From a virus (taxonomy: Duplodnaviria > Caudoviricetes): a stretch of DNA of 61,975 nucleotides. The translations under genes were made by a program, and so were the position numbers. How positions within the stretch are numbered: the stretch's first letter is position 1; each line of letters opens with the position of its first letter. Shown piece after piece: positions 1 to 61,975 of this stretch. The notes under the pieces were generated by a model. That model made no database searches. It was not told where the DNA came from and was given only the letters and a program-made list of their open reading frames with translations. The stretch is from positions 1-61,975 of IMG/VR virus record IMGVR_UViG_3300037247_001905; one strand, written 5' to 3'.

Positions 1-228
1 GTTGCCGCCCAAGGCCATAGGCTAGTGGTTGCCAACGGTGGGCCTGTTGAGAATGGGTTCTCACTAAGCATGTAGTGGTGGCTACGACCATAGCTACGAC
101 ACCCTGCCACGCCAACACGACCGATGCGGTAGAGGTGACTGCCGGCACGCCAGCATGACCGCTGCGGCTGGTGCGGTCGCCCTCCGTTGGTGCGGGGGTG
201 TGCCGCTGGCGTGGCGGGGTGCCGCCCG
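1..228 (+). repeat. Left copy of 228-bp terminal direct repeat
   Basis: Matches 61748-61975 except G128 vs A61875. Confidence 0.95.
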
Positions 229-508
229 TGCGCTGGGGGTTGCCCCTGAAGTGGAGAGCAGGCTACAAATAAAGGTCAAATACTGGTGCGTGACGCTTGC
301 GGTGCCGATGACTGTCATGTATGATGCGTGCATGTCAGTCAGTTGGTCAGACGATGGGCGAGTGACACTAATGAGAATGGAAACTCACCTACCCTCCTCC
401 ACCCCTACCACACCCCATACACCCACTCCCCCGCGCGCAAATGACCCCTTATTGCGACCCCATTCTCAACAAACCCCCGCCCCCACACCACACGAAAGGC
501 CCCACACC

Positions 509-733
509 ATGCCCGACAACCGCGACCATATCACGCACCGCAAACTACGCGAAGGTCTCGAACGCTGGCTCTCAAACCCCGCCGTCCGCACTCCCGCAAA
601 GGACATCGTGCGCACCGGTCTCAACCGCGACATCCTCGATGCTGCACACGACGCGCGCCAAGCTGCTTCTATTCTTACCGCCGTTGCTGCCGACATCGGT
701 GGTGGCGACCCAATCGCCAACCCCTTCGAGTAA
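509..733 (+). CDS. Hypothetical early protein
   Basis: ATG follows CACGAAAGG RBS; in-frame part of ORF 155..733. Confidence 0.7.
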   Translation: MPDNRDHITHRKLREGLERWLSNPAVRTPAKDIVRTGLNRDILDAAHDARQAASILTAVAADIGGGDPIANPFE

Positions 734-800
734 CCCCAGCGCGGCACCGCTCACCGGCGCTCGCCGCGCATTCAACCAACACGAAAGGACCACACACCCC

Positions 801-986
801 ATGCCCAAAACTGTATATAAACGAGCAACGGAACTAGGTCGCAGAGTTGCGGCCAAGCTGGAAGATTCAGCCGTAGACGAAAGAAAAACACGCGGACAAA
901 CGGCACGCTACCGGCTCGAACTTGACGCGGCCGACCTACTCCGAGCGTTTGCGGCCGAGCGCGATCGGCACCACCCCACAAACTAA
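801..986 (+). CDS. Hypothetical early protein
   Basis: ATG follows the conserved leader; MPKTVYKR... Confidence 0.7.
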   Translation: MPKTVYKRATELGRRVAAKLEDSAVDERKTRGQTARYRLELDAADLLRAFAAERDRHHPTN

Positions 987-1048
987 CCCTCTCTCGCCGA
1001 TCCCTTGACGGTGGTCGGCGGGATTTCACTAACTGAAAGGGTGCAGCC

Positions 1049-1375
1049 ATGAATCGGATTGCAACAATGATTGCAGCGCAGAGAGCGGAGATTGACCGTC
1101 GATTGACCGAAGGGTTGACGACTCAAGTGAAAGTCGACGAAACCTGCGCGGCCCTGGACATGGAACTTGACGAATACGTCAACTTCCAGAATCTCAAGAG
1201 TCTGGCGGTAGCCGACGGCACGTTGACCCCGGAAGAGGGTCAACTGGTCTACGCGTACTTGGGCGAATCGCCCACAACGTTCAACAATCAGCCCGTTGAA
1301 GTAAAAGCGATATTGACCAAGCTACACCACGAGTTGCTAGGCCGGACCATTCGAGCGCGGTCTGTAGCGTCCTAG
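1049..1375 (+). CDS. Hypothetical early protein
   Basis: 108 aa, GAAAGGG RBS, protein-like composition. Confidence 0.8.
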   Translation: MNRIATMIAAQRAEIDRRLTEGLTTQVKVDETCAALDMELDEYVNFQNLKSLAVADGTLTPEEGQLVYAYLGESPTTFNNQPVEVKAILTKLHHELLGRTIRARSVAS

Positions 1376-1442
1376 TTTCACCTCCGCCGATCGGCTACCG
1401 CTGCTCGGCGACGTTCAACCACCAACACGAAAGGACCACACC

Positions 1443-2827: not shown

Positions 2828-2861
2828 CCAACCAACCCCAACGCACGAAAGGAAACCCCCC

Positions 2862-5770: not shown

Positions 5771-6067
5771 ATGATGACCCCCGCGCTCCCCTGCCTCGAA
5801 CCACAAGCCGCCCAAGCCGGCGACATTGTGTTCTGCGATCGCGGCCGCGCCGTCCCCATCCTCACTCTCCACTCCAACGCCCTCGAAACATTCGAGCGCG
5901 AAGCCCTCTCCCGCTACCTCTCAAGTTACGACACTCTCCTTACCGACGCGCGCTACCTTGCCGACTTGCTCTACGACCGCGAAGCAGTTGTTAGCACCCC
6001 CGCCGCAATCAACAAAGCCAAAGACGAACTCATTGCCACCCTCAACTACATCGAAAACACTGCCTAA
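5771..6067 (+). CDS. Hypothetical protein
   Basis: In-frame ATG; tiles between neighbours. Confidence 0.7.
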   Translation: MMTPALPCLEPQAAQAGDIVFCDRGRAVPILTLHSNALETFEREALSRYLSSYDTLLTDARYLADLLYDREAVVSTPAAINKAKDELIATLNYIENTA

Positions 6068-9201: not shown

Positions 9202-9966
9202 ATGACCGCACTCGCCACCGCCCCCACCCAAATCCCCGTCGAGACCTCCGGCATCGTCATTGCTCACAACCCGGCCGAAATGAAAACGGCCCGCACCAAA
9301 CTCACCGCCTGGGCCGCCGATAAGGAGGCAGCCGCCCAAGCCGAACTCGACGACATCGCCGCCTGTCTCGAAGTCGCCGAGCGCAACAAACAGCGCACCT
9401 CCACCCTCAAACGTCTCCGCCTGCGCGCCACACGCCGCCTCGAATACTTCGAGAAGATCCGCCTTGCCCTCGACGCTGGCTACGTCATCGTGCCCGACAT
9501 GGGCGGGGACATCTTCGCCATCCGCACGACCGCCGAACTTCCCCACGGCGGCGAAGTCACCACCCGCTACGGCAAGCCCATCGTAAACGACGAGCGCGAG
9601 AAGGCTCTGCCCACCGGCGAGGGCGACTACGTCGACGCCGAACCCACCCAACAAAACTACACCAGCAAAGACACCGATCACAACGGCAAAGAGATCACCG
9701 TCAACGCCGCCTACCCCCTCGCGTGGCGGGGCGTTGAACTCCCCTCGTTCGCCGCCAAGCCCGTCATCTTCGCCGACCTCGAACGCGCCATGCAGGACCG
9801 CATCTTCGACGAATTCGCCATCGCCCCCTCCCGCAAGTCCAGCCGCACCGACCCCACCATCACCGGCCGCATCATTCACCCCTCCGACGCGGGCAAGCTC
9901 TTGTGGCGCCGCCGCGCCGTCACCTTCCTCATCGCCTGGTGGATCGACCCCACCGACCTCGAATAA
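9202..9966 (+). CDS. Hypothetical protein
   Basis: AAAGGAG RBS; 254 aa. Confidence 0.85.
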   Translation: MTALATAPTQIPVETSGIVIAHNPAEMKTARTKLTAWAADKEAAAQAELDDIAACLEVAERNKQRTSTLKRLRLRATRRLEYFEKIRLALDAGYVIVPDMGGDIFAIRTTAELPHGGEVTTRYGKPIVNDEREKALPTGEGDYVDAEPTQQNYTSKDTDHNGKEITVNAAYPLAWRGVELPSFAAKPVIFADLERAMQDRIFDEFAIAPSRKSSRTDPTITGRIIHPSDAGKLLWRRRAVTFLIAWWIDPTDLE

Positions 9967-10007: not shown

Positions 10008-10628
10008 ATGCCCACCCCCGACCCCCACACCGATCCCCTCGTCCGCGCCGCGATCGACGTCGCCGCTATAGCCACCGACGCCCTCGTGCTCACCTTCAAG
10101 GGCGAGGGCATCGCGTGGGCCTCCCTCGGCCTCTTCCTCGTCTCCCGCGCCTGCCAACTCCACGACCCTCCATCCGCAACCACCGACGCTTTCATCGAGC
10201 GCACCCTCTACGACTGGTTCACCCGCGCCTGCGTCACCCCGACCACCCCCGTCTCCGAAGCAATCCCCCGCCTTCTCAGGATCATGGCCACCCAAACCAA
10301 CCCTGCTACTACGCACGGCTTGGGCGGCAAGGAAACTCTCGAGAGCAAGCCCCGGCAACAGGGCTGTACCGAGCGCGCCGTTCTCATCCTGGCAGACGAA
10401 CTGCGGAAGCCTAATGTCCGCGCGGTCTACTGCTGTCTGACACCTACCGCGCGCACATCATTCATGGATCGTGTTATTGCAGCGCTCAAATGTGACCTGT
10501 CCGTCTCCGCGCGCACCGATGACCGCATCGACTTTGCAAACGGTTCTACCCTGACGATTCCCATTGAACTCACCAGAACGGGCAGCAATGTGTCACAAGT
10601 GCATAACCTGCGGCGTCGCCACCGTTGA
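10008..10628 (+). CDS. Hypothetical protein
   Basis: 206-aa ORF with arm-typical codon bias. Confidence 0.6.
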   Translation: MPTPDPHTDPLVRAAIDVAAIATDALVLTFKGEGIAWASLGLFLVSRACQLHDPPSATTDAFIERTLYDWFTRACVTPTTPVSEAIPRLLRIMATQTNPATTHGLGGKETLESKPRQQGCTERAVLILADELRKPNVRAVYCCLTPTARTSFMDRVIAALKCDLSVSARTDDRIDFANGSTLTIPIELTRTGSNVSQVHNLRRRHR

Positions 10629-11175: not shown

Positions 11176-11915
11176 CTCCCCTCCCCGCCCATCCCGACTG
11201 TACCGCCTGTGAACTTCACGAACACGCACAGTCCGTCGGTCTGCCTACGGTCCATGAGGGATTGCCGCCCAAGCCGAATGCGCCCGCTGTGTTCGCCATC
11301 GGCCAGAACCCCGGCAACGACGAGGACATCCACGGCTTGCCGTTCGTTGGCCCCTCGGGCGCCCTCCTGCGCGGCGCACTCTTCACCCCCAGCGACGAAC
11401 TCACGCTCAACCCCGCGCTTGGCGAGTTTCAGCCCGGCATCTACTTCCATCCACACAAACTTCACGCCCGCTGCTCCATCTACATCACCAACACCGTGCG
11501 CTGTCACACCGGCGCCAACGCCAAGCCCGGCTACCGCGCCCACATTGTCCCCTGCGCCCCGCACACCCTTGTCGACCTTACCGCCGTCCTCGACACCCAC
11601 CACGAATGCGACCGCAACATTGTGCTCTGCCTGGGCGCCGTTGCCGCCGACTTCGTCTGGAAGCTTGTGCTCGGCAACTCTCGAGCCCGTCCCATGAAAG
11701 AACACTTCGGGCACCAGGGCGAACTCCACGCCATCGACGGCCGCCCCTTCACCCTCTTCTTTACCTACCACCCGGCGGCCGTCATCCGTGACTGGAACCT
11801 CTCGCACGCCGTTGAGGGCCACATGAAACTCCTCAGCGACTTCCTCGACGGCATTGTCCCCTTTATCTCCAAACCCACCATCGTCCCCGTCCGCATCCTC
11901 GGCGCCCCCAGATAG
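11172..11915 (+). CDS. udg: Uracil-DNA glycosylase superfamily protein (family 4/5-like, Fe-S cysteines)
   Basis: CTACELH, IGQNPG..ED..G.PFVGPSG.LL, YITNTVRC, TYHPAA. Confidence 0.88.
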   Translation: MTPLPAHPDCTACELHEHAQSVGLPTVHEGLPPKPNAPAVFAIGQNPGNDEDIHGLPFVGPSGALLRGALFTPSDELTLNPALGEFQPGIYFHPHKLHARCSIYITNTVRCHTGANAKPGYRAHIVPCAPHTLVDLTAVLDTHHECDRNIVLCLGAVAADFVWKLVLGNSRARPMKEHFGHQGELHAIDGRPFTLFFTYHPAAVIRDWNLSHAVEGHMKLLSDFLDGIVPFISKPTIVPVRILGAPR

Positions 11916-13818: not shown

Positions 13819-16062
13819 ATGACAGACCCCCGCGTCATCTCGCTAGACATTGAAACCTACGGCGCCTGTAAACACAACACACGCGGCGACCCGCTCCCCG
13901 AACAGACCGTCTTCCACCCGCTCAAGGCGCTCGCCCATGACCGTGTCGCCCCGCGCGACCTCATTCTTACCTGTTCCATTACCATCCCCAAGGAAGATCC
14001 ACGATGCCACAACCTCAAATCGCCATCACACAATACAAAAGCGGAGACAACACCAAAACAGTTGTCACGCTCCCGACGGCGGAAGAAACCGCCGAATGGC
14101 TCGTTGCCGTCATCACAGCCACGGAATCTGCCTTGGAGCGCCAGCGCAATAGCGGCGATGGTACCGGGTGACACTTGGGTCTACGACTTCGCCAACCCTA
14201 CGCATCGCCGCATGCTGGCGCGCACCCTTTACTACGCCGATACCATCATTGGCAAGGACGTCGTCTTCGACATTATCCACCTCCGCCGGTTCCCCGCCCT
14301 GCGCGCCGCGCTCGACGGCTTCCGTCACACCCTCATCGACGTCTCGTGGCTCAACTTCCTTCAGTGTGAAGTTCGTCCCGAACGTGCCCTCAAGAACATT
14401 GGCCCTGTCCTTGGCAAGTACCGGTACGACCCCGAGGCCACGCTCGCCGGTGGGCACCGCTATCTTGCTCCCTTCGCCGTCGACGCCAACGGCAACTCCT
14501 GTATGCACTACAACGCCGAAGACACACACAACAGCATTCTTGCCGCCGCCGAGTTTGCCGCTCGCATCATTGACGAGTTCCCCGACACCGATAAGCTCTC
14601 TCCCTTTTGCCTTACCCACTTTTCCGAACTGCAATGGACCGCCGTGCGCATGTCCGAAGCCGGCGTTCCCGTCCACCGCGCATCGCTTGTGGCCCTCGAG
14701 CGATCTCTTACCGCCACCGTCGCCCGCTGTGACAAATCGCTTGCCGCCCAAGCCCTGCAAATGGAGGGCAGGGGCTCTGACTCCTCGCGGCGGGGCTTCA
14801 TTGAGAAAGCCCTTGACCACATCGACGAAACCATCGACGTTGCTGAAGCCATCGAACACGAATCGGTCTGGGTAGCAAAGCATTTGGTACACATCACCAA
14901 GACCGGCAAGGTTTCGATGGACGAAACGACGCGGGCCACCGCGCTCCACCTGCTTCCCAAAGACGACACGATCTACCGCCCCGCGCTTGAACTCTGGAAC
15001 GAACGCTCCGTAGCCAACACCCTTATCACCCGGCACACCTGCCCCCTGCTTCGTTACAAACGGCCATCCTCTCTTGGCAAGATGAAAGACAAGCCGCTTG
15101 CTTCCAAACTCGTGCCCTCGCCCCTACCTACCGCGCGCGCTCTCGGCATCGAACTTGCCTACCCCTCGTGGTTCGTTGTTCCCTCGGCGTTCAAGGACGA
15201 TCGCGGCGGGCCGGGCGGCCAGCGTCAAGGCCGGATGAGCGCATCAAGCCCGCCCGTCTCGCAGTGGAACGTCCCGCTCAAACGCTGCGTGCGCTCCCGC
15301 TTTTACAACGGTTCCATCGTTGCCGCAGACCTTTCCCAAATCGAACTTCGCGTTGCGGCCGTCTGTTCGGGCGAGCCCACCATGCTCGACAACTATGCGC
15401 ACGACGGCGACCTGCACGGCGACCGTGCCGTCTTCGTATTCGGCCCCGACGTTGTCAACGATCCCGCCTTTCACAGCGGCGACATGCAGACCGACCCTCG
15501 CCAGTGGGCCAAACGATTCAACTTCGAGGATCTCTACTGGGCGGGCGCCAAGAAGATGCAGGAGATGCTCCTGCTCGAATCTGGTGTCTTCCGCCCCATC
15601 GCCTTCTTCTACGAAGTCGTCGACTCTCGTTCCGAACTCCGGCCCACGCTCTACGCATGGCAGCGATCCCTCGTCGCAAAGGCCCACCGTGACGGCGTGC
15701 TCATCCTCCCGTTCACCGGCCACTCCCGCTCCCTCATCGCCGCCAAACCGAACGAGGCCGTCAACTTCCCCGTCCAGACAATCGCCGCCGTCACAATGGT
15801 TGCTGTCCAACGCGAACTCCACCGCCTTCTGCCCGCGCTCAACCACCCCGCACCACCCTGCTACCTCATTACCAACTGGTACGACGCCAACTACTTCGAC
15901 TGCGCCCCGTCTTTCCTCTCCGAACTCAAAGACGCCTTCGCCATTGCCATCCACCACGTTGCGCACACCGGTTACTGGGCGCAAATCTGTAGCTACTACG
16001 GCCACTACGTCCCTCTCAAGTACGAACTCAAGTCCGCCCCCACCGCCGACGCCGCCGCCTGA
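13819..16062 (+). CDS. polA: Family A DNA polymerase with 3'-5' exonuclease domain (divergent)
   Basis: ExoI SLDIETYG, ExoII GKDVVFDI, ExoIII YNAEDT; GRMS; motif A ADLSQIELRV; motif B RQWAKRFNF...Y; NFPVQ; motif C-like NWYDA. Confidence 0.92.
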   Translation: MTDPRVISLDIETYGACKHNTRGDPLPEQTVFHPLKALAHDRVAPRDLILTCSITIPKEDPRCHNLKSPSHNTKAETTPKQLSRSRRRKKPPNGSLPSSQPRNLPWSASAIAAMVPGDTWVYDFANPTHRRMLARTLYYADTIIGKDVVFDIIHLRRFPALRAALDGFRHTLIDVSWLNFLQCEVRPERALKNIGPVLGKYRYDPEATLAGGHRYLAPFAVDANGNSCMHYNAEDTHNSILAAAEFAARIIDEFPDTDKLSPFCLTHFSELQWTAVRMSEAGVPVHRASLVALERSLTATVARCDKSLAAQALQMEGRGSDSSRRGFIEKALDHIDETIDVAEAIEHESVWVAKHLVHITKTGKVSMDETTRATALHLLPKDDTIYRPALELWNERSVANTLITRHTCPLLRYKRPSSLGKMKDKPLASKLVPSPLPTARALGIELAYPSWFVVPSAFKDDRGGPGGQRQGRMSASSPPVSQWNVPLKRCVRSRFYNGSIVAADLSQIELRVAAVCSGEPTMLDNYAHDGDLHGDRAVFVFGPDVVNDPAFHSGDMQTDPRQWAKRFNFEDLYWAGAKKMQEMLLLESGVFRPIAFFYEVVDSRSELRPTLYAWQRSLVAKAHRDGVLILPFTGHSRSLIAAKPNEAVNFPVQTIAAVTMVAVQRELHRLLPALNHPAPPCYLITNWYDANYFDCAPSFLSELKDAFAIAIHHVAHTGYWAQICSYYGHYVPLKYELKSAPTADAAA
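14004..14171 (+). CDS. Nested 55-aa ORF in an alternative frame inside the polymerase
   Basis: AAGGAAG RBS 7 nt upstream; MPQPQIAITQYKSGDNTKTVVTLPTAEETAEWLVAVITATESALERQRNSGDGTG*. Confidence 0.55.
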   Translation: MPQPQIAITQYKSGDNTKTVVTLPTAEETAEWLVAVITATESALERQRNSGDGTG

Positions 16063-16274: not shown

Positions 16275-16649
16275 ATGCACGCGCACTACCTCCTTGTTGA
16301 CGCACTCCTCGCGCGTGGCTACCACCCTACCAACATCGCCCTTGCTCTTTCCCTACACCACCCCGAAATCTATCGGCACTGCGTTTGCTACGACCTGCCT
16401 ACCAACCGCAGGATCACCGCCCGCAGCAAAACGGCCCGCCTCATCCGCCGCCAACTCATCGATCAACTCTGGACCCCCGAAGAAGTCGGCCGGTTCTACC
16501 GTCAGTCCCCCGACAACATCCGTGATATCGCCGGCGGCCACGCCAATCGCCGTACATTCATCTTGCCGCCCAAGCCCCTGATTGCCTACCTCCGGCGTAC
16601 ACTGCTCAACAATGCCCCGCACACAGGTCATCCTGGTGGATCAGCGTGA
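16275..16649 (+). CDS. Hypothetical protein
   Basis: 124-aa ORF. Confidence 0.55.
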   Translation: MHAHYLLVDALLARGYHPTNIALALSLHHPEIYRHCVCYDLPTNRRITARSKTARLIRRQLIDQLWTPEEVGRFYRQSPDNIRDIAGGHANRRTFILPPKPLIAYLRRTLLNNAPHTGHPGGSA

Positions 16650-17157
16650 ACGCAAGCCCCTGCCATTTCCCAAGCGGATCACCGATCTCGAACTGGGGCT
16701 TGGGCGGCAAGGGGCTGTCACCCTCGAGATCCGCCGCAAGAGGCTGGCAGTGGCCGATTACATGCTCGACGGGCTCCGGGGCAACTGCTACACTGCCGGC
16801 GCGGGCGCGGCCGTCATCGAGACCAAACGCTCGCTCTCGGAGTTGCACGGCAATGTCTTCGGAAAGAAGCGACCAAACTTCGTCCGGCTCCTCTCGCGAA
16901 TGCGTGAGCGCTTTAGATTCCCTCTTCTGGTTGTCGAGGGGCTTGTCTTCAACCCGGACGACGAGGACGCCGGTCCTGTCTGCGACGCCTTCCAACGTCT
17001 GCTCATGGAGCATGGCGTCCCGCACCTCATGTTTGCCCCCTGCAACACACCGGCACAGCGAAGGAAACTTGCGTGGTACGCCGCGCGTTGGCTCGTAAAT
17101 GGAGCGTTGACTTATGAGCGCACCCCCCACAATGACGAAGATCGCAACGGTGACTGA
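16612..17157 (+). CDS. ERCC4/XPF-family nuclease
   Basis: ILVDQRERKPL, LAVADY, AVIETKRSLSEL, LLVVEG. Confidence 0.85.
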   Translation: MPRTQVILVDQRERKPLPFPKRITDLELGLGRQGAVTLEIRRKRLAVADYMLDGLRGNCYTAGAGAAVIETKRSLSELHGNVFGKKRPNFVRLLSRMRERFRFPLLVVEGLVFNPDDEDAGPVCDAFQRLLMEHGVPHLMFAPCNTPAQRRKLAWYAARWLVNGALTYERTPHNDEDRNGD

Positions 17158-21908: not shown

Positions 21909-22535
21909 ATGACACCAGCACCACCCCCCCAGCACAGCAAGAACCTCCTCCAATCAAGAACCATCTGGGCGCTCATCGTTGCAGCGGTTGCATTCGGACT
22001 CGAGCAGTTGGTCCCAAACATCCCGCTCGAGGAACGCCAGGGCGCTATCGACGCCGTGCAAACCCACGGCCCCACTGTTGTCGCCTTCCTTTCACTCGTT
22101 GCCGCAGCCATCTTTCGCCGCAAGGCCGACGGCCCGCTCACCATCGTCCCAAACACAACCGTACGGATGCTCCTGTACGGCACCCTGAGTCTCGGCTTGG
22201 GCGGCACGGCGGTTGGTACGGCTCTCAGCATTCCGGGCTGCACATCGCAGCAGGCCGGCCCTGAAGCCGCTCAGCGGGACATCCAAGAGAACGTCATCTT
22301 TGCACAACGGGCACTGTTGGCGGCCTACAGCGCCGGTTGGATCACCCGCGACACCTGGAAGACTACCGTCAACCCGGTCATCCAAGAAGCTGCTGCGTTC
22401 GTCAACGACTACGACGCGGCCCGACTCGTAGGCGACATTGACGAGATGGCGCTCATCCGCGCCAGCCTCGAACGCAGTCTGATCAAGCTCAGGGATCTTG
22501 AGCAGACACATCACCCCGCACCGGAGACACCGTAA
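21909..22535 (+). CDS. Holin-like membrane protein with internal lipobox-like segment
   Basis: LQSRTIWALIVAAVAFGL; second hydrophobic segment; LSIPGC followed by a helical domain. Confidence 0.55.
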   Translation: MTPAPPPQHSKNLLQSRTIWALIVAAVAFGLEQLVPNIPLEERQGAIDAVQTHGPTVVAFLSLVAAAIFRRKADGPLTIVPNTTVRMLLYGTLSLGLGGTAVGTALSIPGCTSQQAGPEAAQRDIQENVIFAQRALLAAYSAGWITRDTWKTTVNPVIQEAAAFVNDYDAARLVGDIDEMALIRASLERSLIKLRDLEQTHHPAPETP

Positions 22536-22735: not shown

Positions 22736-22944
22736 ACAGGTCAGGACGACAAACGCGGAGAGGGTGCCACTCTCCCTCGAAGCGCTTGCCGCCCAAGCCG
22801 GGTGCGGTCTGCTTCCCGTGGGCCGCATCCTTTTCCACCCGGCGACGCGCCACGGGTTAGCGGGATTAGATACCCTGCAACGCGTTACCCTGAGCCGCCT
22901 GAAGGGGCAGTCTTCAGGGTTTGGAACAATGAAGGAGCCCTCCC
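22736..22944 (+). ncRNA. Candidate structured RNA or leader with four hairpins
   Basis: Stems 22757-62/22770-75, 22800-10/22820-30, 22856-64/22874-81, 22898-905/22911-18, several with G-U pairs on +. Confidence 0.35.
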
Positions 22945-24381
22945 GTGCCACCGACTATTGCGCGGCCCGTCGTTCCGTCGGGCACCACCGACCCCTGCGC
23001 GAAAAGCTGGCTTGAACACGTCGGCCTGCTTGCAAAGACACCGCCCATTCGATCCTCGATGTTCGGCGACGCCGAAAAAGCCCCGTTTCGTCTCTACCTC
23101 GAGAGTCGGCTGGGCATCTGCTCGCCCTTTCGCAAATCCGAAGCGCTCAATGTGGGCACCTACTTCCACGTTGCCGGCGAGCAAATCGGGAACGAGCCCG
23201 CAGTTGCCGTGCATGCGGTTGAGCAGGCCATTGCGCTGCGCAAGAAGGAAATCGGCAAGGTCTGTCGTCAACTCAAAATGACGGAGACCACCCGTGTTCG
23301 CATGTGTGAAGACGAAGAGGACGACGCCCGCTTTGCGCTCGCTCTCTTTCTCGCCGCCGAGAAGTTCCGCCTTCCCAACAATGCCTATCTCAAGAACGGG
23401 TTTACCGGATACTTCCGGCAGAGTCGCTGGCAGCATCTCGCCGTTGAACTTCGCGTACGGTACGTCGATCCCGACTATCCCAACGCCGTGCTGTGCTGCA
23501 CCATCGACAAGCTTCTATTTGACAAGAAGAAGAATCTTCTCTGGATCGTTGACTACAAAACCACCTCGTTTTCTCCCATCATGCGTGCTCAGACAGTGCG
23601 CGCCGAGCCGCAGCCAATCCACTACCTGCACATTCTTGAGGGCACCCTGCGGCTCATCATTGAACGCTACGAGCTACCGTCTGCAACAAAGCTCGGCGGC
23701 GTCCTGCACATGATCGTGCGCAAGCCGAGTTCCAGTATGCGGCGCCCCGGCACCGCCGATCGCGACTTCTGCTACATCTCCCAGTCCAAGCGGGCCAAAC
23801 TAGCGGGTTCAGTCGCGTTTACCCGCTCTAAGATAATCGTTATCGTGCGTACCTGGAACGAGGCCGAGCCCGACGACAACAAACTGATCCACCGCCAAGA
23901 GTTTGCCGCCCAAGCCGAAGATGCTCTGGCGAAAGCTATTGCCTTCCTCGAAGAGAAGGTGACAACCAAGGCCAAGAAGGAATACATCGGCGAGCCCTCG
24001 TGGGAGCGGTTCAACGAGCGGGTTGTCGATTGGGAACTCGGACGTGGCAACTTCGCCGACGAGGACCGTGGCAGCGATCCGCCCGTCAACTTCTCACGCA
24101 CCCCGATGGCAGAGTTCCGCAGCCCCCGCCGGCAGCACGCGTACCACAAGCGACTGCGTCGCGTCTACGACCTTCTGACCTGTGATGCAGACCCCGTCAA
24201 CTTTCCGGAAACCGCTGAGGGAATGCTCGCCTTTACCGGCCGGTCGCTCAGCCCGTTCGCCGATTTTCACGTCACCGAGCCGCACCAATGGCTCGACGTG
24301 ATGCGGCGCAACCACCTACTGCCCGGCCTCCATCGCGACGCCGACATCATTGACGACGCCTGCATAACAGCCCTTGACTAA
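22945..24381 (+). CDS. PD-(D/E)XK nuclease (RecB/Cas4-like exonuclease)
   Basis: ALNVGTYFH, AVE, TIDKL, IVDYKTT, Q..HY; AAGGAG RBS before GTG. Confidence 0.85.
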   Translation: MPPTIARPVVPSGTTDPCAKSWLEHVGLLAKTPPIRSSMFGDAEKAPFRLYLESRLGICSPFRKSEALNVGTYFHVAGEQIGNEPAVAVHAVEQAIALRKKEIGKVCRQLKMTETTRVRMCEDEEDDARFALALFLAAEKFRLPNNAYLKNGFTGYFRQSRWQHLAVELRVRYVDPDYPNAVLCCTIDKLLFDKKKNLLWIVDYKTTSFSPIMRAQTVRAEPQPIHYLHILEGTLRLIIERYELPSATKLGGVLHMIVRKPSSSMRRPGTADRDFCYISQSKRAKLAGSVAFTRSKIIVIVRTWNEAEPDDNKLIHRQEFAAQAEDALAKAIAFLEEKVTTKAKKEYIGEPSWERFNERVVDWELGRGNFADEDRGSDPPVNFSRTPMAEFRSPRRQHAYHKRLRRVYDLLTCDADPVNFPETAEGMLAFTGRSLSPFADFHVTEPHQWLDVMRRNHLLPGLHRDADIIDDACITALD

Positions 24382-39666: not shown

Positions 39667-42566
39667 GCCAGTTCCTCCCGAGACAGTCCTCTATCAAGGA
39701 TCTTACCCTCAACCCGGACGCCCAACAACGTGTACCGCAGTTCGGGGCAGAACACCTCAATACCTGGGTGCAGCGAAGGCCCCTGGATCCCTCCTCGGCT
39801 GCCGTCACCCCCGCCAAAGCCCGCCGGGTACTCCTTGGCGATCGCATCGTCGCCCCCCACCGATTGCCAGTCCGCCGTGCGGTCGGGAGCGGCCGGGAAC
39901 ACCGATTCCTCGGCTTGGGCGGCATTCCCCTTGTAGACCAGCGCACGGTACCTCGCGTCGGTCGAAGAGGATGCAGCACCGTTGACGTCCGTTATAGCCG
40001 CCTTGATCGTGTTGACCTGCCGCTGGCGAAAGAACTCGTGCGACCCAAACTTGAAACCGTCCTCGGTCTGAAGCCCCACGCCCGCGCCCACCCACCGCTG
40101 ATGCACCGGGCTCAATCCGAGCCGTTGGCCGGCAACGCTTGCAAACTGTGCCGCGTCTTCTAGGGTCACCTCCTGAGCCGCGCCATTCGTTGCCGTGATC
40201 TTTGTGCGGTTGCCCGCGTCGTCGCCGTTCAGTACATAGATGTAGCACCCCTGAAGACGGTCGGTGTCGTTGAAGGCAAACGGCAACGTCAGTGTTGCAC
40301 CCGACGGGTTGCTTGCCTGCGTCCACCGTTTCGTCGCCGAGGTTGGCTGCATCAACGTCAGTTCGCTCTTTGTCTCCAGACGATCGTGCGCCCACACGCG
40401 CAACCGCTTTACATTAGCGATCGTGTATACCTCGAAGAAGACCGCACGCTTCTCCAGCGGATTCGTCTGTGCGTTGGGGGCTTGTGTTGGGTCGCGCGGC
40501 ATCACTCCATCGTCGACGTGACGGAACGGCAGATCGGCGAGCGCAGTGATCTTGCTCGTCTCGAACCACAGCAGTTGCGCCTCGCCCAACGACGTGTTCA
40601 GCACCCAGACCACGCCCACCGCGTCGTCGTACGCGCACTCCACGGACTCCAGACTTGCCGCCCAGACCGAGCGTATGACATAGTTGAGTGCGGCGAGGTC
40701 GGCAAGCTGCCCGCGTGCGTCGATTTCTTTGGCGCCCCGTCTTGTAATGCCGTAGCCGTGGCTGCCCATCTCGGCTGCGGCGCGGTCGTTGACCAGCCCG
40801 TACCCGCGATGGACCGGAAACCCCTTGAGCGACCGTGTCTCGCGGTGGAAGGCGTAAATGTTCTGCCCCGTCCAGCCCAAGATCGACGTGCCAATCTGCA
40901 AGAAGCGGAGCACCTCTTCGCTGGCGGCCTTCAGCGCGTACTTGTCTGCCGGGTCGAAGAGTTCAACGGCGGGCTCCAACAGGCTCGACCACCGCACGAT
41001 ACCGACGCCGGCCTCGTCCGGATCGAGCACGCCCGAGTTGCCGACCAGCATCGTGTTCTCACTGAACAGCAGGGCGCCGCCGGGAGGCATGTCCTCAAGG
41101 TACACGGGAATGTCAACCAGCGCGTTCTGCAACGGCAACTCATCCACCGCAGTCTGTACGAAGTAGCCTGCAACCCTCCACGGCGCTGCGGGCTGGCTGT
41201 CAATGTCATAATCTGCCAGCACAATCGTACCGTCGAGGTGCATGATTACGCTGTCGTTGTTGATGGTCAGCGTGCTCCGTCCACGGTACACCTGCATCGT
41301 GTCGTAGAGGCTGCTGTCGTAAATGACGTAGACCATCGGGAACGGTATGTTGAAGGTCAACCGGTGCATGTAATCGGACTGATCCGGGTCGTAGATATAG
41401 CTGAAGGAGCCAGAGCTTCCCGTCTTGGAAAGCTCCGCCGCTACCCGATTGCTTAGGGCGCTCTTGCGCCCGGTGCGGCTGTCGAGCAACCGGTACATGA
41501 ATATGCCACCCGGCGACGGCGTTGCGTCCGTGCGCAGTAGCGGCGCCGGTTCTTCGGCAGCGATGTCTCTTACGTCGCGGTTGTACCCGGCGCTCGTAAA
41601 CTCACCGGCGGGGCTCGGGAACGGATACACCGGTGTTTGTGGCGCACCGGCGGGGGCGGTGAGCAGGAACAGCGTGCGAAAGTTTGGGTCGCTGTGCGGG
41701 GGCGACGCCCACAACAGCCCGCCGCCCGGCAACCGCAGATCGCTCGGTCCGCGCAGACCAAGGGCGTAGTCCGGTCCCGCCGTGATGTTGCGCTCGCTCA
41801 AGTACGGGTTGGTCTCGTCAGCGGGACCGCCGCCCACTGTGCTGACGCCGGCCGTATTCCCAAACCCGCAGTATACGACGGTCGCTTCTGCGGGTTTGCT
41901 GGCCGGTGTGCTCTTGACAGGGATTGCTTCAACCATGTCGGGGTGTGGCGTCGCTGGCGCACTGTTCAGCGCACGCGAAGCAACGGCGTCCGTCCCGGCG
42001 GCCACCAGTTCCGGGGGCTCGCCCGGCCCGGTGTCTTCTATAACGATCAGATCAAAGACGCCCGGCGACGTCTCCGTAATGTAGAACATGAAGGTGGGCT
42101 TGCCGCGACGTCCGACATATACGAATCGACCTACGACCTCGACGCTCATCTCCTCAAAGCCAAACGGCTCGTCAGGGATGAGCCCCGTCACGAATCCATC
42201 GTCGAAGTCGTGTATCCACGTTGTTGAATCGCCAATCCGGTATTGGAGTCGGTAACGCGCGATCGTTTCCGCCGAGTTTGTGAACCGCATCAACACGCCA
42301 TAGGCGTAGGTTGTCGCGTCCACTCGAGACTCCCACATCCGCGCCCCGTGCAGGGTGCCCCCGCCGGCAAGTGTTGTGCTGTACCCGATGTCGACGTCGA
42401 AGTAGTGAATGAAGCCCGGAAACGGGCGCGTCCCGCCGTCGTACGAGCCGTCCGCCCCCAGCAACTCGGCGGCGGCGTTGGTCGCCGTGCCTGTGCGCGA
42501 CGTCTCGCGGTTCTGTGTGGCGAACGCGAGCGGATAATCCCATGCTGGACGGTCAATCGGCGGCAT
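39663..42566 (-). CDS. Tail nozzle / stabilisation protein (T7 gp12 or P22 gp10-like, putative)
   Basis: 967 aa, beta-propeller-like; RPFPG at N-terminus, VRWSSLLEP; position in operon. Confidence 0.6.
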   Translation of the reverse strand: MPPIDRPAWDYPLAFATQNRETSRTGTATNAAAELLGADGSYDGGTRPFPGFIHYFDVDIGYSTTLAGGGTLHGARMWESRVDATTYAYGVLMRFTNSAETIARYRLQYRIGDSTTWIHDFDDGFVTGLIPDEPFGFEEMSVEVVGRFVYVGRRGKPTFMFYITETSPGVFDLIVIEDTGPGEPPELVAAGTDAVASRALNSAPATPHPDMVEAIPVKSTPASKPAEATVVYCGFGNTAGVSTVGGGPADETNPYLSERNITAGPDYALGLRGPSDLRLPGGGLLWASPPHSDPNFRTLFLLTAPAGAPQTPVYPFPSPAGEFTSAGYNRDVRDIAAEEPAPLLRTDATPSPGGIFMYRLLDSRTGRKSALSNRVAAELSKTGSSGSFSYIYDPDQSDYMHRLTFNIPFPMVYVIYDSSLYDTMQVYRGRSTLTINNDSVIMHLDGTIVLADYDIDSQPAAPWRVAGYFVQTAVDELPLQNALVDIPVYLEDMPPGGALLFSENTMLVGNSGVLDPDEAGVGIVRWSSLLEPAVELFDPADKYALKAASEEVLRFLQIGTSILGWTGQNIYAFHRETRSLKGFPVHRGYGLVNDRAAAEMGSHGYGITRRGAKEIDARGQLADLAALNYVIRSVWAASLESVECAYDDAVGVVWVLNTSLGEAQLLWFETSKITALADLPFRHVDDGVMPRDPTQAPNAQTNPLEKRAVFFEVYTIANVKRLRVWAHDRLETKSELTLMQPTSATKRWTQASNPSGATLTLPFAFNDTDRLQGCYIYVLNGDDAGNRTKITATNGAAQEVTLEDAAQFASVAGQRLGLSPVHQRWVGAGVGLQTEDGFKFGSHEFFRQRQVNTIKAAITDVNGAASSSTDARYRALVYKGNAAQAEESVFPAAPDRTADWQSVGGDDAIAKEYPAGFGGGDGSRGGIQGPSLHPGIEVFCPELRYTLLGVRVEGKILDRGLSREELA

Positions 42567-43164: not shown

Positions 43165-43839
43165 CTATTCTCTTGCCGCCCAAGCCGCGTCTGGTGTGTC
43201 GTAGTAGGGTACGTCGTGTGCGCGAGGGGTTTCGATGTTGTCGGAGTCGAACTTCGTAGAGCGCTCGACGGGGCGTGGTTCGTCGGGTGTGTAGACCATC
43301 ATCTGCGGGTGCAGCCCGGCGAGAAGCTGGTCGGCCCAATGCGCCCGTGTCTCGAGGGCGGCGAGACAACGGTCGTAGGCAACGTCGCGCACGGCGTAGG
43401 CCACCGTCCAATACATATAGGAGGGGCGGCAGCAGTAGCCGCGCACCAACCGCTTGTCGAGCATGATCTTGCCGCCGAGATAGAACATCTCCCAGTCGGA
43501 GGGCATATCCCGCAAGAACTGCGACGTCATCTCGTTGAAACGGTGGTTGAGTTTGGCGTCGTCCTCGAAGATCAGGACGCCTTTGTACCCCATGATCTTC
43601 GCCATTGAAATGACGGTGTGGTGTGACAGCAACGAGGCGAGCGCCCCGCCTTTTAGCGGGTAGACCAGCGGTGGACTCTCGGGCACCTTCTTCAGTGTGG
43701 CGCCATTGATCGCCTCGAACCGTGTCACCTCCAGGCCGCACCGCTCGAACTGTGGCCACATGAACGCCCACTTATCCTTGCGCCGTCGCAGGTTGATGCA
43801 GAACGCGGCGTCCACCGCTTCGAGCAGTTCCGGTATCAT
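43165..43839 (-). CDS. Glycosyltransferase family 25
   Basis: FCINL.RR.D, RFEAING, G..ASLLSH, VLIFEDDA, WEMFYLG. Confidence 0.88.
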   Translation of the reverse strand: MIPELLEAVDAAFCINLRRRKDKWAFMWPQFERCGLEVTRFEAINGATLKKVPESPPLVYPLKGGALASLLSHHTVISMAKIMGYKGVLIFEDDAKLNHRFNEMTSQFLRDMPSDWEMFYLGGKIMLDKRLVRGYCCRPSYMYWTVAYAVRDVAYDRCLAALETRAHWADQLLAGLHPQMMVYTPDEPRPVERSTKFDSDNIETPRAHDVPYYDTPDAAWAARE

Positions 43840-53258: not shown

Positions 53259-53628
53259 GATCGGCCTCCGCCCGCGCTTCTTCGGGGCTCAGCAGTTGCA
53301 TCCTATCACCAGACGGCTGCCGACGCGAAAGATCCTCCATGATCTCCGTCCGGATACGGTCAAGCCCCTCAGACAACGCCTTCGCGATCGCGGGCCGCAT
53401 CTCCTCCAGCACGGCCGCGCGGTCGGCCTCCGACGCCGGGACCAACCGGCCCTTCTCAACGTCGGCCGCCACCGCAACCAGCGTAACGTAGTGATCGAGC
53501 GGCACGACAATGTGGTCGAGTGACAGCCGCATCACCGTCGAACGCGGCTTGGGCGGCTCGCTCTCGGACTCCTCGCCCATGACGAGTTGACGGAGACGGG
53601 AGACTTCGGCCTGTTCGTCGGGGGTCAT
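53236..53628 (-). CDS. Hypothetical protein between terminase and portal
   Basis: GAGG RBS; coupled. Confidence 0.7.
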   Translation of the reverse strand: MTPDEQAEVSRLRQLVMGEESESEPPKPRSTVMRLSLDHIVVPLDHYVTLVAVAADVEKGRLVPASEADRAAVLEEMRPAIAKALSEGLDRIRTEIMEDLSRRQPSGDRMQLLSPEEARAEADRDSTAQG

Positions 53629-58848: not shown

Positions 58849-58922
58849 GACGGGAGTGTAGCAGATAGACGGCAAGGCAACCAAAAAGAGGGCTTGGGCG
58901 GCAAGGGAATCGGAGGCGATGC

Positions 58923-60371
58923 ATGAGTAAGCCGCTGGAACTGGGCAGCAAGGAGCCGATGAAGATTGCACGGGCGATAGCTGCAACGGTGCTTGGGGGT
59001 GAGTTGCCAAGGTTGCTGCGGGTAGGGGAGCATTGGTACGCGTGGAAAGAGCTTGTCACCCACAGCCGGTGGATGGAGGTGCCGCCGGAGTGGGTGTTTG
59101 ATTGTGCGGCGCTGGCGCTGGAGGACGCGTGCGTGCTAACGGTGAAGCATGACGACAGCGGAAAGACCGAGGTGCGTGATCGGTTGAAACCGAAGGTGAC
59201 GGATGTTAGAGAGGTCGTGGGGTTTCTCGAGACGGTGTGCAGGCACGAGGGCGGGATGCCGGCGTGGGTCGGGAAGAAACCGAAGGGGGCGCCGAGTGCG
59301 GACGAGTTGACGGCGTTCGCCGACCGCCTGGTATGGATAGACGGGAGCAAGCCGCCGGAATGGGTCACGTTTGAGAGGGACGAGCGATGGTTCGGGTTGG
59401 CAGTTGCGCCGGCGGCGTGGGATCCAAAGGCGAAGTGTCCAGAATGGGAACGGTCGATGAAAAGATGGCTCGATGGGGAGCAGAGCGCCGTCGAGTTGCG
59501 GGAGCGGTTCTACGGGGATCTGCTGCGGGCGCACAGGTGTCATGGGTACGCGCTGTACGAGTATGGAGAGACGAAGGCGGGGAAGGGCATCGGCACGCGG
59601 TTGTTGCAGGCGGCGCTCGGCGGCGCGCCGTCGTACTACGGCACGCGGATGGAAGTGGTGTCGGGCGAGTTCGGGCAGGACGGGTTGGAGCGCGCGCAGG
59701 TAACGGTGGTGGGCGAGTTGCACGGCGACCTGCGGCGGGGCGTTGGCGATCGGTTGGGGAGTCTCATCAAGACGATCCTGGGGTGGGATACGACAACGCT
59801 GAACGCAAAGCACGTCAGATTGCGGCAGGTGGAATACCAGTGCGGGCTCATTTTGCAGGGCAACCCGCTAGTGCGGCTGCCGGACGACAAGAAGAGTCTG
59901 AGCGGGAAGCTGCTGTTCCTGTATTTTGGAGCGAGCGCGTTGGGAGCAGAGGACTTGGGATTGGAGACGAGGCTGCACAAAGAGTTGGCAGGGATCATGT
60001 TGCGGTGGTGCGAAGCCGCATGGCGGCTGGGGGAGGCGAAAGCCGGAGAGCGATGGCCAAAAACCGAGGCCGGCACTGCTATTCAGTTGCGGTTGGAGCA
60101 GGATACGCACCCAGTCGATTCTTTCGTGGGAGCAGCGTTTGAGCGGTCGCCTCGGTGGTTTGTGACGGGGGATGTTGTTGGGAGGCAACGGGCGGTGTGG
60201 AAAGCCGCAACGGGTCTGGATATTGAGAGGGAGAACGGAAATGCCGTAAGTGACCTGCGGTTGTGTTCGTACATCGAAGAACACCTAACGGGTGGTGGTG
60301 TCACGCTATGCCGTCGGAAAAATAAGAGGGGGTTGCAGGGATTGAAGCCGTTGCAGAAGTTGAGGCTGTAG
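58923..60371 (+). CDS. D5-like superfamily 3 helicase (no primase domain recognised)
   Basis: WDPKAKCPEW, Walker A YGETKAGKG, Walker B-like VVGE, motif C LILQGN; GGAGG RBS. Confidence 0.8.
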   Translation: MSKPLELGSKEPMKIARAIAATVLGGELPRLLRVGEHWYAWKELVTHSRWMEVPPEWVFDCAALALEDACVLTVKHDDSGKTEVRDRLKPKVTDVREVVGFLETVCRHEGGMPAWVGKKPKGAPSADELTAFADRLVWIDGSKPPEWVTFERDERWFGLAVAPAAWDPKAKCPEWERSMKRWLDGEQSAVELRERFYGDLLRAHRCHGYALYEYGETKAGKGIGTRLLQAALGGAPSYYGTRMEVVSGEFGQDGLERAQVTVVGELHGDLRRGVGDRLGSLIKTILGWDTTTLNAKHVRLRQVEYQCGLILQGNPLVRLPDDKKSLSGKLLFLYFGASALGAEDLGLETRLHKELAGIMLRWCEAAWRLGEAKAGERWPKTEAGTAIQLRLEQDTHPVDSFVGAAFERSPRWFVTGDVVGRQRAVWKAATGLDIERENGNAVSDLRLCSYIEEHLTGGGVTLCRRKNKRGLQGLKPLQKLRL

Positions 60372-60430
60372 CACTGATTTTGGTTGCTGGTGCGTGGAAA
60401 ATCAGGGTTTGCCGCCCAAGCCGTGAGCGC

Positions 60431-60712
60431 TTAGTCAGAGGGCGGGAACTGCTGGGGGTGGTTTCGGCAGAAGAGTTGGGCGTGGAGCATGTGCCGGCCG
60501 ATGTCTATCAGGCCGAGGGCGTGGGTGGATGACGGGTAGTACCAGGTGCCGAGTGGGGCGCCGTCGTTGGGGCCGTCGTTGGTGGGCTCGAGTTCGACGA
60601 CGATGAAGGCGCCCCGCGTGCGCCGCATGATCTCGCTGCTGAGTTCGTCGAGGGTGTAGGTCGCGAGCGGGTTGACGTCGAGGGCGTTGGGTTTGTCGGG
60701 GGTGTCGGTCAT
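60431..60712 (-). CDS. Hypothetical protein
   Basis: 93 aa; ATGA coupling. Confidence 0.7.
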   Translation of the reverse strand: MTDTPDKPNALDVNPLATYTLDELSSEIMRRTRGAFIVVELEPTNDGPNDGAPLGTWYYPSSTHALGLIDIGRHMLHAQLFCRNHPQQFPPSD

Positions 60713-61032
60713 GCGTTGTTGTTGAGGGCGTGTGCTGCCGCGCGGCGGAGTTGGCGGGAGCGGCGCAGGGCGTCTTTGTCGCTGGTGAGAGCTTCGAGTT
60801 TTTGGCGTTGGATGGCGGCAACGCGTTTCTCGGGGGCGCGTGGGAAATGCTCGGCGTGTTTGGCGGGCGTGATCGCGGCTTGCAGTTTGGTAAGACGGGC
60901 CTCGAGGACGCGTTGTTCAGGACTGAGGGGAGAGAGCTTGGCGTGTTCGTCGGCGGTGAGCGGGACGAAGTCGTCACGGCGGTCGCGGGGGATGTCTGAG
61001 AGTTTGAGGATCTCGCCGGTGTGTGGATTCAT
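60709..61032 (-). CDS. Hypothetical protein
   Basis: AGGAG RBS; MNPHTGEI... Confidence 0.7.
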   Translation of the reverse strand: MNPHTGEILKLSDIPRDRRDDFVPLTADEHAKLSPLSPEQRVLEARLTKLQAAITPAKHAEHFPRAPEKRVAAIQRQKLEALTSDKDALRRSRQLRRAAAHALNNNA

Positions 61033-61747
61033 GGGGGGCTCCTGGGAAAATGGGACCGCCCCCGATGGAGGGACCACGGGGGCGATCCTGAAAGGGACGC
61101 GGGGAGTGTAGGGGGTAAGGGGCGGGAACGCAAGGCCGGGGTTGTGGGCGGCGGACGCTGGTGGGGCGGGACGGAGAGGGATTTTGTGGGCCGGTGGGTG
61201 GCTGAAGGGGGGCGAGGGCTTAGAGAGCGTTTGGGGGCTTCTGAGCGGTGGGTGGTTCTAAGCGTGGGACGGCAGAGGTACCGAACATGGGGGTGGGCGC
61301 GCGGGGATCGGAGCAAAATCGGGCAGAGGTGGACCTGAGAGGGGGTCGTGCCACTTTTTGAAAAGTGTAAGTGGTTGGGGGGCGAGGGGTTAGGGGGAAT
61401 CGTGCCAGTTTTGACGTTTGTAGGGGGGCGGGGGTTTGGGCCGCGTGCCTGGGCGTGCGTGGGTCTCTATATGTGTTTACAAGTGTCATAAGTGGCATAA
61501 AGAGGGTAAGGGCTGCTGGGGCAAGGGGTTACGGCTGCCACTTTGGGTGACGTTACGGGTACGTTGTGCCGGTTTGTGGTGGCGAAAACCTAACAGGGGG
61601 GTAACACTTTGGAGACAGAGACCTTGAGCGTGGGGAAATGTCCCCACACCCTGCCACGCTCGTTGCCGGGGGGCCGGTGGGGGGTCTTCTCCCTATGCGT
61701 CACGGGCACCCACTCCATCGTTAGGTATATGGTTGGTGGCTGGTTCA

Positions 61748-61975
61748 GTTGCCGCCCAAGGCCATAGGCTAGTGGTTGCCAACGGTGGGCCTGTTGAGAA
61801 TGGGTTCTCACTAAGCATGTAGTGGTGGCTACGACCATAGCTACGACACCCTGCCACGCCAACACGACCGATGCAGTAGAGGTGACTGCCGGCACGCCAG
61901 CATGACCGCTGCGGCTGGTGCGGTCGCCCTCCGTTGGTGCGGGGGTGTGCCGCTGGCGTGGCGGGGTGCCGCCCG
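61748..61975 (+). repeat. Right copy of 228-bp terminal direct repeat
   Basis: Matches 1-228 with one mismatch. Confidence 0.95.

Follow-up and report, generated by a model that had tools for sequence, protein, structure and literature searches.

Genome-wide, phage-specific DNA words are known from only a few groups of cultured phages, namely as repressor stoperators and as nick motifs, and the function of the nick motifs is still unexplained decades after their discovery. Here, a signal of the same kind is described from a large uncultured phage family present in marine and other environmental metagenomes. The stretch of DNA analysed, called the window, is the complete IMG/VR virus record IMGVR_UViG_3300037247_001905 of 61,975 bases from an uncultured marine-sediment phage, and the element in question is the 14-bp word TTGCCGCCCAAGCC, which is dispersed over this genome on both strands. 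It represents one dialect of a word kept by the whole family. It is very probably intrinsic to the phage, under selection and read as DNA by a protein. While genome-wide arrays of phage-specific sites are a known kind of signal, the word as a family trait with lineage dialects is new.

The closest precedent in print is the nick motif. In phage tf, 14 nick-motif sites in 46 kb lie within genes and are unlinked to the direction of transcription, their positions are conserved among relatives with an apparently co-evolving consensus, and the genome has two convergent gene arms (PMC3517423). For phage Rembedalsseter, 13 nicks at WACTRTGAC and an enrichment of this motif in 60 relatives are reported (PMC11780129). 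These phages share with the window family a short, strict, phage-specific word with 4-14 or more copies per genome, which is independent of the reading frame and has a lineage-specific consensus. In contrast, their motif is found on one strand only, whereas the sites of the window family lie on both strands and are enriched in convergent pairs. The window phage also falls outside the nick-motif phage groups, since nothing in the GenBank phage collection matches its TerL at E<=1e-5.

In Cluster A mycobacteriophages, asymmetric repressor sites of 13 bp recur 20-30 times across the genome. Their consensus is subcluster-specific and tracks the repressor, and these stoperators are oriented with transcription (PMC6550527). 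They resemble the word of the window as asymmetric sites of 13-14 bp with 20-30 copies and a lineage-specific consensus. However, they follow transcription and serve the repressor of a temperate phage, whereas the sites of the window are unoriented, mostly genic and evenly spaced per strand. Cluster O mycobacteriophages have 34 copies of a 17-bp repeat of unknown function, about one third of them in genes (PMC4351075). Like the word of the window, this repeat, with its more than 30 copies, is dispersed and partly genic in a phage that is not apparently temperate. This repeat is palindromic and a dimeric binder is expected for it, whereas the word of the window is asymmetric.

Outside phages, the DNA uptake sequences (DUS) of Neisseriaceae and the uptake signal sequences (USS) of Pasteurellaceae are words of 9-14 bp that occur in both orientations and in all reading frames, about once per 1-4 kb. 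Like the family words, they form inverted pairs and have dialects with a common core. They belong, however, to cellular genomes and their competence machinery, whereas the family words were confined to phage DNA in two metagenome-assembled genomes (MAGs).

The word TTGCCGCCCAAGCC has 15 exact copies in the window (11 on the plus and four on the minus strand), compared to a mean of 0.00 in 100 dinucleotide-preserving shuffles. Allowing up to two mismatches gives 26 matches against 1.10 expected (shuffle maximum 4), and up to three mismatches 46 against 11.15. The matches at positions 2 and 61749 are a single copy doubled by an overlap of the sequence ends, leaving 10 distinct near copies and thus 25 distinct sites, with a largest gap of 5,803 bp on a circle of 61,747 bp. 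The 14-mer is missing from about 0.2-5.8 kb of the window. Its core GCCGCCCAAGCC is the most frequent 12-mer of the genome with 21 copies, the runner-up being an unrelated 12-mer with five. In a logo of the 21 core sites, the information is confined to about 15 bp (tTGCCGCCCAAGCCg) and the flanks carry none. The word is asymmetric, 14-15 bp long and non-palindromic. Twenty of the 25 sites lie within open reading frames (ORFs), 10 in sense and 10 in antisense orientation, and five of the six phases are used. An earlier sequence-only reading of the window had reported the exact copies with their strands and coordinates, about 10 near copies, the lack of any gap above about 6 kb, the differing translations, three intergenic copies, and a word that is neither palindromic nor oriented with transcription. 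All of these observations were reproduced, the intergenic placement of 22786, 58891 and 60409 with simple ORF calls. The 15 exact copies are located as follows.

10317..10330, minus strand: antisense in ORF 10008-10628, read as GLGGK
11262..11275, plus strand: sense in the UDG-family gene 11154-11915, LPPKP
14741..14754, plus strand: sense in the family A DNA polymerase gene 13819-16062, LAAQA
16563..16576, plus strand: in ORF 16275-16649, LPPKP, 6 bp upstream of the ERCC4-like gene
16697..16710, minus strand: antisense in the ERCC4-like gene 16582-17157, GLGRQ
22786..22799, plus strand: intergenic, 146 bp upstream of the PD-(D/E)XK exonuclease gene 22945-24381
23903..23916, plus strand: sense in the PD-(D/E)XK exonuclease gene, FAAQA
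27710..27723, minus strand: antisense in the RecD-like SF1 helicase gene 26775-27908, AWAA
27963..27976, plus strand: sense in ORF 27830-29638, FAAQA
33157..33170, plus strand: antisense in the 1173-aa gene 31056-34577, GLGGK
43173..43186, plus strand: antisense at the 3' end of the GT25 gene 43165-43911, AWAA
48032..48045, plus strand: antisense in ORF 47835-48305, AWAA
55746..55759, plus strand: antisense in the 509-aa gene 55643-57172, some 100 bp ahead of the TerL start
58891..58904, minus strand: in a divergent intergenic region, 19 bp upstream of the D5-like helicase gene 58923-60371
60409..60422, plus strand: in the convergent intergenic junction past the helicase gene

The 10 near copies are the following.

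2..15 (equal to 61749-61762), plus strand: one mismatch (…AAGGC), non-coding, in the assembly overlap
5805..5818, plus strand: core intact, AA for TT, intergenic
9329..9342, plus strand: core intact, CA prefix, sense in ORF 9064-9966, AAAQA
22194..22207, minus strand: core intact, GT prefix, antisense in ORF 21909-22535
30510..30523, minus strand: two mismatches, a weak member, within the HNH_3 gene 30363-30722
33189..33202, minus strand: one mismatch, partner of 33157
34155..34168, minus strand: core intact, GT prefix, sense in the 1173-aa gene
39912..39925, minus strand: core intact, AT prefix, sense in the 967-aa gene 39663-42566
40655..40668, plus strand: two mismatches, forming a weak convergent pair with a three-mismatch minus-strand site at 40692, 37 bp downstream
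53546..53559, minus strand: core intact, GA prefix, sense in ORF 53236-53628

It is the DNA, not the protein, that is under selection. This follows from the excess over codon shuffles and from the same word being read in differing frames, as (L/F)AAQA, LPPKP, GLGGK, GLGRQ or AWAA. When synonymous codons were shuffled within genes (200 times), 0.125 exact coding copies were obtained compared to 12 observed, with the three intergenic copies untouched by the shuffle. The enrichment therefore persists when codons are preserved, and the claim of selection on the DNA made from the sequence alone is borne out. This calls for caution in codon-based analyses of phage genes.

The observation of a genome-wide 14-bp word is confirmed as real. 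An adapter or assembly artefact, named beforehand as a finding that would overturn it, is ruled out by a Logan contig, by intact reading frames and by the independent contigs of relatives. Positions 1-20000 of the window are matched by this independent Logan assembly of the same run with 0 differences and a flat depth of about 26; the Logan contigs come from one run, which is the sole run holding the phage. A mobile mini-element or longer repeat is ruled out as well, because no information extends beyond about 15 bp and the frames at the sites are intact. No tRNA genes or Rfam families were found in the window.

The ends of the record were also considered. The two end copies (1-228 and 61748-61975, 228 bp) agree over exactly 127 bases and have their one mismatch at position 128, and a relative (G004, see below) has a 191-bp overlap with a single mismatch exactly 127 bases from its end. 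The occurrence of the mismatch after exactly 127 bases in both overlaps points to a k=127 assembly graph with a single-nucleotide polymorphism bubble. Moreover, a Logan contig of 61,777 nt (61,747 + 30) passes straight through position 1 of the window. What looked like a 'terminal repeat' is an overlap created in assembling a map of 61,747 bp, which is circular or circularly permuted. It implies no physical end. The variant that had been placed at base 2 of a terminal repeat is indeed present, but its position there is without terminal meaning since the ends are an assembly overlap. Among 108 contig ends of relatives, one lies within 25 bp of a word, compared to 1.7 expected, and a terminal role of the word was rejected on these three grounds.

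Relatives were collected by a TerL-profile search, from which 80 viral loci were taken out of 361 confirmed, together with three MAG contigs. Their TerL homologues are at most 39% identical to that of the window, and an identical TerL is encoded on three contigs. The word of the window was found in none of the relatives from this search, most of which hold a dispersed word of their own; the scan of related phage contigs proposed with the sequence-only reading thus returned dialect words instead of the window's. Out of 62 TerL-family loci with a length of 9 kb or more, 49 contain at least five copies of CCCCCACT, including members with a GC content of 0.41-0.43, while two further relatives hold CCCCCACACCTC or GTCCCATCCGAT instead. 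The core CCCCCACT is common to phages from GC 0.41 to 0.67. Five whole relative genomes (G001-G005) were analysed alongside the window genome (G000), the genome sizes in the family being 44-62 kb. Their words are given below.

G001: logo gtCCCCCACACCTc, core word CCCCCACACCT with 57 copies in 47 kb
G002: logo gaGTCCCATCCGATa, core word CCCATCCGA with 26 copies
G003: logo ACCCCCACTGGt, core word CCCCCACTG with 26 copies
G004: logo aCCCCCACTGAT, core word CCCCCACTG with 28 copies
G005: logo ACCCCCACTG.T, core word CCCCCACTG with 35 copies

The words of the relatives are asymmetric, sharply bounded, 12-15 bp long and present on both strands. Across the six genomes, 66 sites are in sense and 67 in antisense orientation within genes, and 25 against 23 in the gaps between co-directional genes. 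About one third of the family sites are intergenic compared to about 15% non-coding DNA. Besides the word, the family is characterised by convergent gene arms and by PolA, UDG, a D5-like helicase, a Cas4-like exonuclease and Sak4. In the TerL tree, the window stands beside G001 and G002, which have other unusual dialects, as sister to the CCCCCACTG clade. As this is a quick tree with several very long branches, only the grouping of G000 with the loci L148 and L166 (support 98) is relied on. Such words provide an easy means of attributing metagenomic contigs to a phage lineage.

The phage is a member of an uncultured group, and its polymerase has weak partial matches alone in the GenBank phage collection. 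The cultured phages HMO-2011 and DSL-LC04, which are similar in build and size, have no such word, their top 12-mers reaching three and four copies; HMO-2011 shares the convergent-arm layout with the window. Searches of viral contigs with PolA and a 531-aa protein of the window gave nothing useful. In the literature searched, no paper describing the family or its words was found, and text matches to the words of relatives were primer sequences only.

The sites are under purifying selection, a statement that applies to relatives only. Among class-I relatives, 68 of 94 aligned sites in 14 pairs at 77-92% identity are fully conserved, compared to an expectation of 26.3 derived from random 9-mers of these alignments, the pairs being non-independent. 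Between dialect classes, the site positions mostly differ.

The words follow the phage and not its surroundings in two MAGs. In a 3.4-Mb MAG with a 53-kb family contig, all 21 copies of the 13-mer CCCCCACTCAAGG are on the phage contig. A second MAG has 19 of its 21 copies of the 10-mer TCCCCCCACT on three contigs, one of which bears TerL; the two others putatively derive from this phage as well. In the remainder of the two MAGs, the shared 8-mer core has 22 and 40 copies compared to 63 and 79 for the reversed control word. MAG binning is no proof of a host, and the strength of this test is graded as moderate. In the metagenome contigs, the 14-mer TTGCCGCCCAAGCC occurred as single copies in all of the best 80 of 120 stretches listed. 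In the viral contigs it was a single copy in 78 of 80 among the matches listed, the two doubles being tandem protein repeats. Single matches in both scans are taken as chance and the scans as weak negatives. The conservation of the core across GC 0.41-0.67 argues for a reader encoded by the phage, and from the strand-wise pattern described below we infer that it works on a single strand, or in a single orientation, at any one time.

As a separate observation from the viral scan, two unrelated viral contigs from one sample hold the 14-mer two to three times in a tandem coding repeat with a period of 33 bp (L039, 708-820; L077, 10675-10853).

The spacing of the sites tends to be more even than chance when each strand is taken separately, which applies to four of the six genomes. 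Spacing was tested on circular maps per strand with site sets chosen after looking, and the coefficients of variation (CV) were as follows.

G000, plus strand: n=15, CV 0.50, P=0.004
G003, plus strand: n=8, CV 0.18, P<0.0002
G003, minus strand: n=18, CV 0.49, P=0.001
G004, plus strand: n=18, CV 0.54, P=0.003
G004, minus strand: n=9, CV 0.46, P=0.019
G005, plus strand: n=23, CV 0.59, P=0.008

With the strands pooled, the sites are less regular (CV 0.69-0.78 in G000 and G003-G005, 0.96 in G001). The two strands are also related to each other through pairs of sites. Convergent pairs, in which the C-rich word comes first and its complement after, occur 22 times within 300 bp in seven genomes, compared to 9.8 expected and with 0 of 5000 simulations reaching this number; divergent pairs occur five times with 9.9 expected. 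Two such convergent pairs are found in the window, 16563/16697 (134 bp apart, start to start) and 33157/33189 (32 bp), and two weak ones each include a three-mismatch member, 10285/10317 (32 bp) and 40655/40692 (37 bp). The C-rich form is mostly on the strand opposite to TerL in all seven genomes, with 139:75 sites (65:35), and the strand splits in relatives are 35/22, 5/14, 12/3 and 15/9, and also 18/8. The density is about one site per 1-4 kb, and the complement strands are G/T-rich. No clear coincidence was seen between switch points of GC skew and of motif orientation, and a runs test for strand alternation in the window was not significant. The pattern suggests that the handling of phage DNA includes a strand-reading step which is absent from textbooks.

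The genome was annotated with Pfam and PHROGs and is arranged in the following parts.

about 1-30.7 kb, plus strand: small early genes, an XRE helix-turn-helix (HTH) protein, a weak PadR-like match, the UDG-family gene, the family A polymerase, the ERCC4-like nuclease, the PD-(D/E)XK (Cas4/RecB-type) exonuclease, a Sak4-like gene, the RecD-like helicase and an HNH_3 endonuclease
31-58.4 kb, minus strand: structural genes and TerL (53625-55646)
58923-60371, plus strand: a D5_N/DUF5906 SF3 helicase gene, conserved in the family and a candidate reader of the word

A Pfam scan of 53 ORFs of the window gave no domain of an integrase, a partition protein, a primase or an RNA polymerase. The set of UDG-family protein, DNA polymerase and D5_N/SF3 helicase (11154-16062 and 58923-60371) is one that we take to recall the D4/E9/D5 trio of poxviruses.

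The sequence-only reading had proposed a binding site for a protein. A sequence-specific reader is a natural explanation, and of the functions it listed only a replication-type process read from the strand gained some support. In the favoured mechanism, the words would be dedicated sites at which the phage replisome, consisting of the D5-like SF3 helicase and a putative priming activity, starts or is loaded. A single word would start synthesis on one strand, a convergent pair would act as a two-way start, and sites would be needed at intervals of a few kb on both strands. With a new dialect, the replication of a lineage would then become private. The helicase is a conserved protein of all six genomes, and in the window its gene is preceded by an exact copy at a distance of 19 bp. 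Such a mechanism of replication start or loading, with strand-by-strand reading by the replication or recombination machinery of the phage, is possible but put forward tentatively.

Several results weigh against replication starts. The even spacing was not significant in G001, G002 and the minus strand of G005, and on the minus strand of G000 it depends on the site set (P=0.14 at up to two mismatches, P=0.018 for sites with an intact core). In G000 alone, the convergent excess was not significant either (2 pairs, 0.69 expected), and the strand bias may simply be base skew acting on a C-rich word. The helicase has no direct tie to the word in any of the evidence, and the 53 ORFs scanned against Pfam include no primase or primase-polymerase domain, although remote homologues could be missed. 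As both strands carry sites throughout the genome, simple two-way replication from one origin does not fit. Furthermore, a pure spacing rule does not predict that sites cluster at the ends of TerL and are scarce at the capsid gene. Sites are enriched within 150 bp of the TerL start (32 of 69 loci) and at the TerL stop (38 of 70), with about 12 expected, and likewise at the portal start (34 of 67). They are absent within 150 bp of the capsid start (0 of 57 loci, about 10 expected) and scarce at the capsid stop (5 of 53, about 9 expected). The putative major capsid gene (48545-50140 in the window, with homologues in G001, G002, G004 and G005) has no copy of the word; the check in G003 used a 290-aa ORF that is probably not the capsid gene.

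In a stronger form of the replication reading, the family would write a private, evolving replication-start code, in which evenly spaced words of 12-15 bp are the sole places where strands are started, on both strands. The starts would be made by the D5-like helicase and priming machinery, or by a trans-acting primer complementary to the word. This stronger form is doubtful. If true, a dialect change would isolate a lineage in replication from co-infecting relatives, and the code would be a general, undescribed way for phages to organise the replication of their genomes.

Besides the helicase, candidate readers in the window are the XRE, PadR-like and HNH_3 proteins, the PD-(D/E)XK exonuclease and, upstream of TerL, the 509-aa protein and a 175-aa protein (57532-58059). 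Large accessory proteins at the same position in G000-G002 are mutually unrelated and match no family. Sequence searches of the PDB returned nothing for the helicase or the 509-aa protein, and the ESM Atlas gave no usable match for two window proteins.

Among the alternatives, the words could be programmed single-strand nick sites, which a phage nickase would cut at a late stage of infection, as in T5 and in phiKMV-like and tf/LUZ24-like phages. The length, copy number and behaviour of the motif match, the family sites are conserved in position, the gene arms converge as in tf, and an HNH_3 endonuclease is encoded in the window. However, every described case is one-stranded (PMC3517423, PMC11780129), in contrast to the 11 plus-strand and four minus-strand copies here. 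Opposite-strand pairs 16-50 bp apart are even enriched, though double nicking would weaken the duplex at such places. The HNH_3 gene is found in only one of the five relatives, and the contig ends of relatives fall at the words no more often than expected by chance (1 of 108 compared to 1.7), which is a weak test. Nick sites are therefore considered unlikely.

An operator or stoperator array of a regulator has to be judged unlikely too. The XRE protein (about 7079-7333), an HTH_3 protein, and the weakly matching PadR-like protein (12186-12458) would be the candidates, and the intergenic share of the family sites, which exceeds that of non-coding DNA in the genomes, would suit operators. Nevertheless, the sites show no orientation in the window (10/10), in the genes of the family (66/67) or in co-directional gaps (25/23), and even spacing per strand is unexpected for operators. 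The 53 scanned ORFs hold no integrase or partition gene, and tblastn at E<0.05 detected no counterpart of the XRE, PadR-like or HNH protein in G001-G005, though the trait is family-wide. In addition, a genuine oriented intergenic leader motif of the same genome, CCAACACGAAAGGA, looks quite different.

A promoter of a phage RNA polymerase (T7 type) was rejected, given that 20 of the 25 sites lie in ORFs without orientation and no RNA polymerase family was matched; a 912-aa protein of the window has no match. The word of one relative presumably resembles the T3 promoter core, an idea that was dropped.

The words could also be strand signals in the manner of Chi, which halt or redirect an end-processing nuclease and promote Sak4-mediated recombination. 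The nuclease could be the Cas4/RecB-family exonuclease of the phage or the RecBCD/AddAB of a host. Such a role would fit sites that are apparently strand-specific and evenly spaced, one per 1-4 kb, with a G/T-rich complement and a moderate strand bias in the same direction in seven of seven genomes; the PD-(D/E)XK exonuclease and the Sak4-like protein are core genes of the family. Known Chi sites, however, are 5-8 nt long and enriched in the host genome, whereas the words are 12-15 bp long and their 8-mer core is not enriched in the two MAGs. The sharing of CCCCCACT over GC 0.41-0.67 speaks against an enzyme of one particular host, base composition may account for the strand bias, and to our knowledge no phage exonuclease has a control site of this type. 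A Chi-like signal is thus quite unlikely.

According to another explanation, which is improbable, the words are dispersed packaging or 'self' tags read by the terminase, through its small subunit or the 509-aa protein upstream of TerL, following the logic of uptake sequences. The occurrence in both orientations and all frames, the dialects sharing a core and the inverted pairs are DUS/USS-like, and a circular assembly agrees with headful packaging. The 32 of 69 loci mentioned (12.2 expected) have a site no more than 150 bp from the TerL start, at about a dozen offsets (-107 in the window), and the proteins encoded directly upstream of TerL have diverged too far for an alignment of G000 with its relatives. 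The same excess recurs at the TerL stop and the portal start, though, and may be an effect of gene junctions. A pac site near terS was rejected because of this lack of specificity. Moreover, a simple tag would not need even spacing by orientation, and we know of no phage with dispersed pac sites.

Finally, a host-derived word copied by the phage, such as an uptake sequence, a site of a host protein or a defence self mark, is very improbable, given its confinement to phage contigs in two MAGs, the single copies among the matches listed in the metagenome and viral scans, and a core conserved in phages of widely differing GC. The host-derived or Chi-like self mark suggested by the sequence-only reading is accordingly unsupported, with an 8-mer core not above its control in tests that are themselves weak.

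Some observations concern individual genomes. In G001, 32% of the 57 sites are within 30 bp of the 3' end of a gene, compared to 5% expected, and eight sites lie 1-7 bp past a stop codon in sense orientation. Examples on its contigs (L202-L204) are found at 6628, 10685, 12448, 14185, 15331, 42590, 44246 and 47004. The complement of the G001 word includes GAGGTG, which resembles a Shine-Dalgarno sequence, and the word may have a second, lineage-specific use in gene expression. The contig of G002 (L205) starts with a long irregular G-rich run at 1-60, which is probably an assembly or sequencing artefact.

In the window, the 466-aa protein encoded at 17727-19127 matches phrog_1645, 'virion structural protein' (E 4e-88), yet its gene sits in the replication arm. 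Homologues with 31-38% identity are present in cyanomyoviruses, Puniceispirillum phage HMO-2011 and phage DSL-LC04. The coding strand of positions 1-16000 is strongly C- and A-rich, with a GC skew of about -0.2 and an AT skew of about +0.2, which is unusual for a coding strand. The second word of the window, CCAACACGAAAGGA, has five exact copies and one copy with one mismatch between 776 and 3513, all on the plus strand of the early region. It lies about 20 bp upstream of start codons, for example at 1422 before 1443 and at 3500 before 3522. It is an ordinary oriented motif of the leader or ribosome-binding-site type and provides an internal contrast to the 14-mer.

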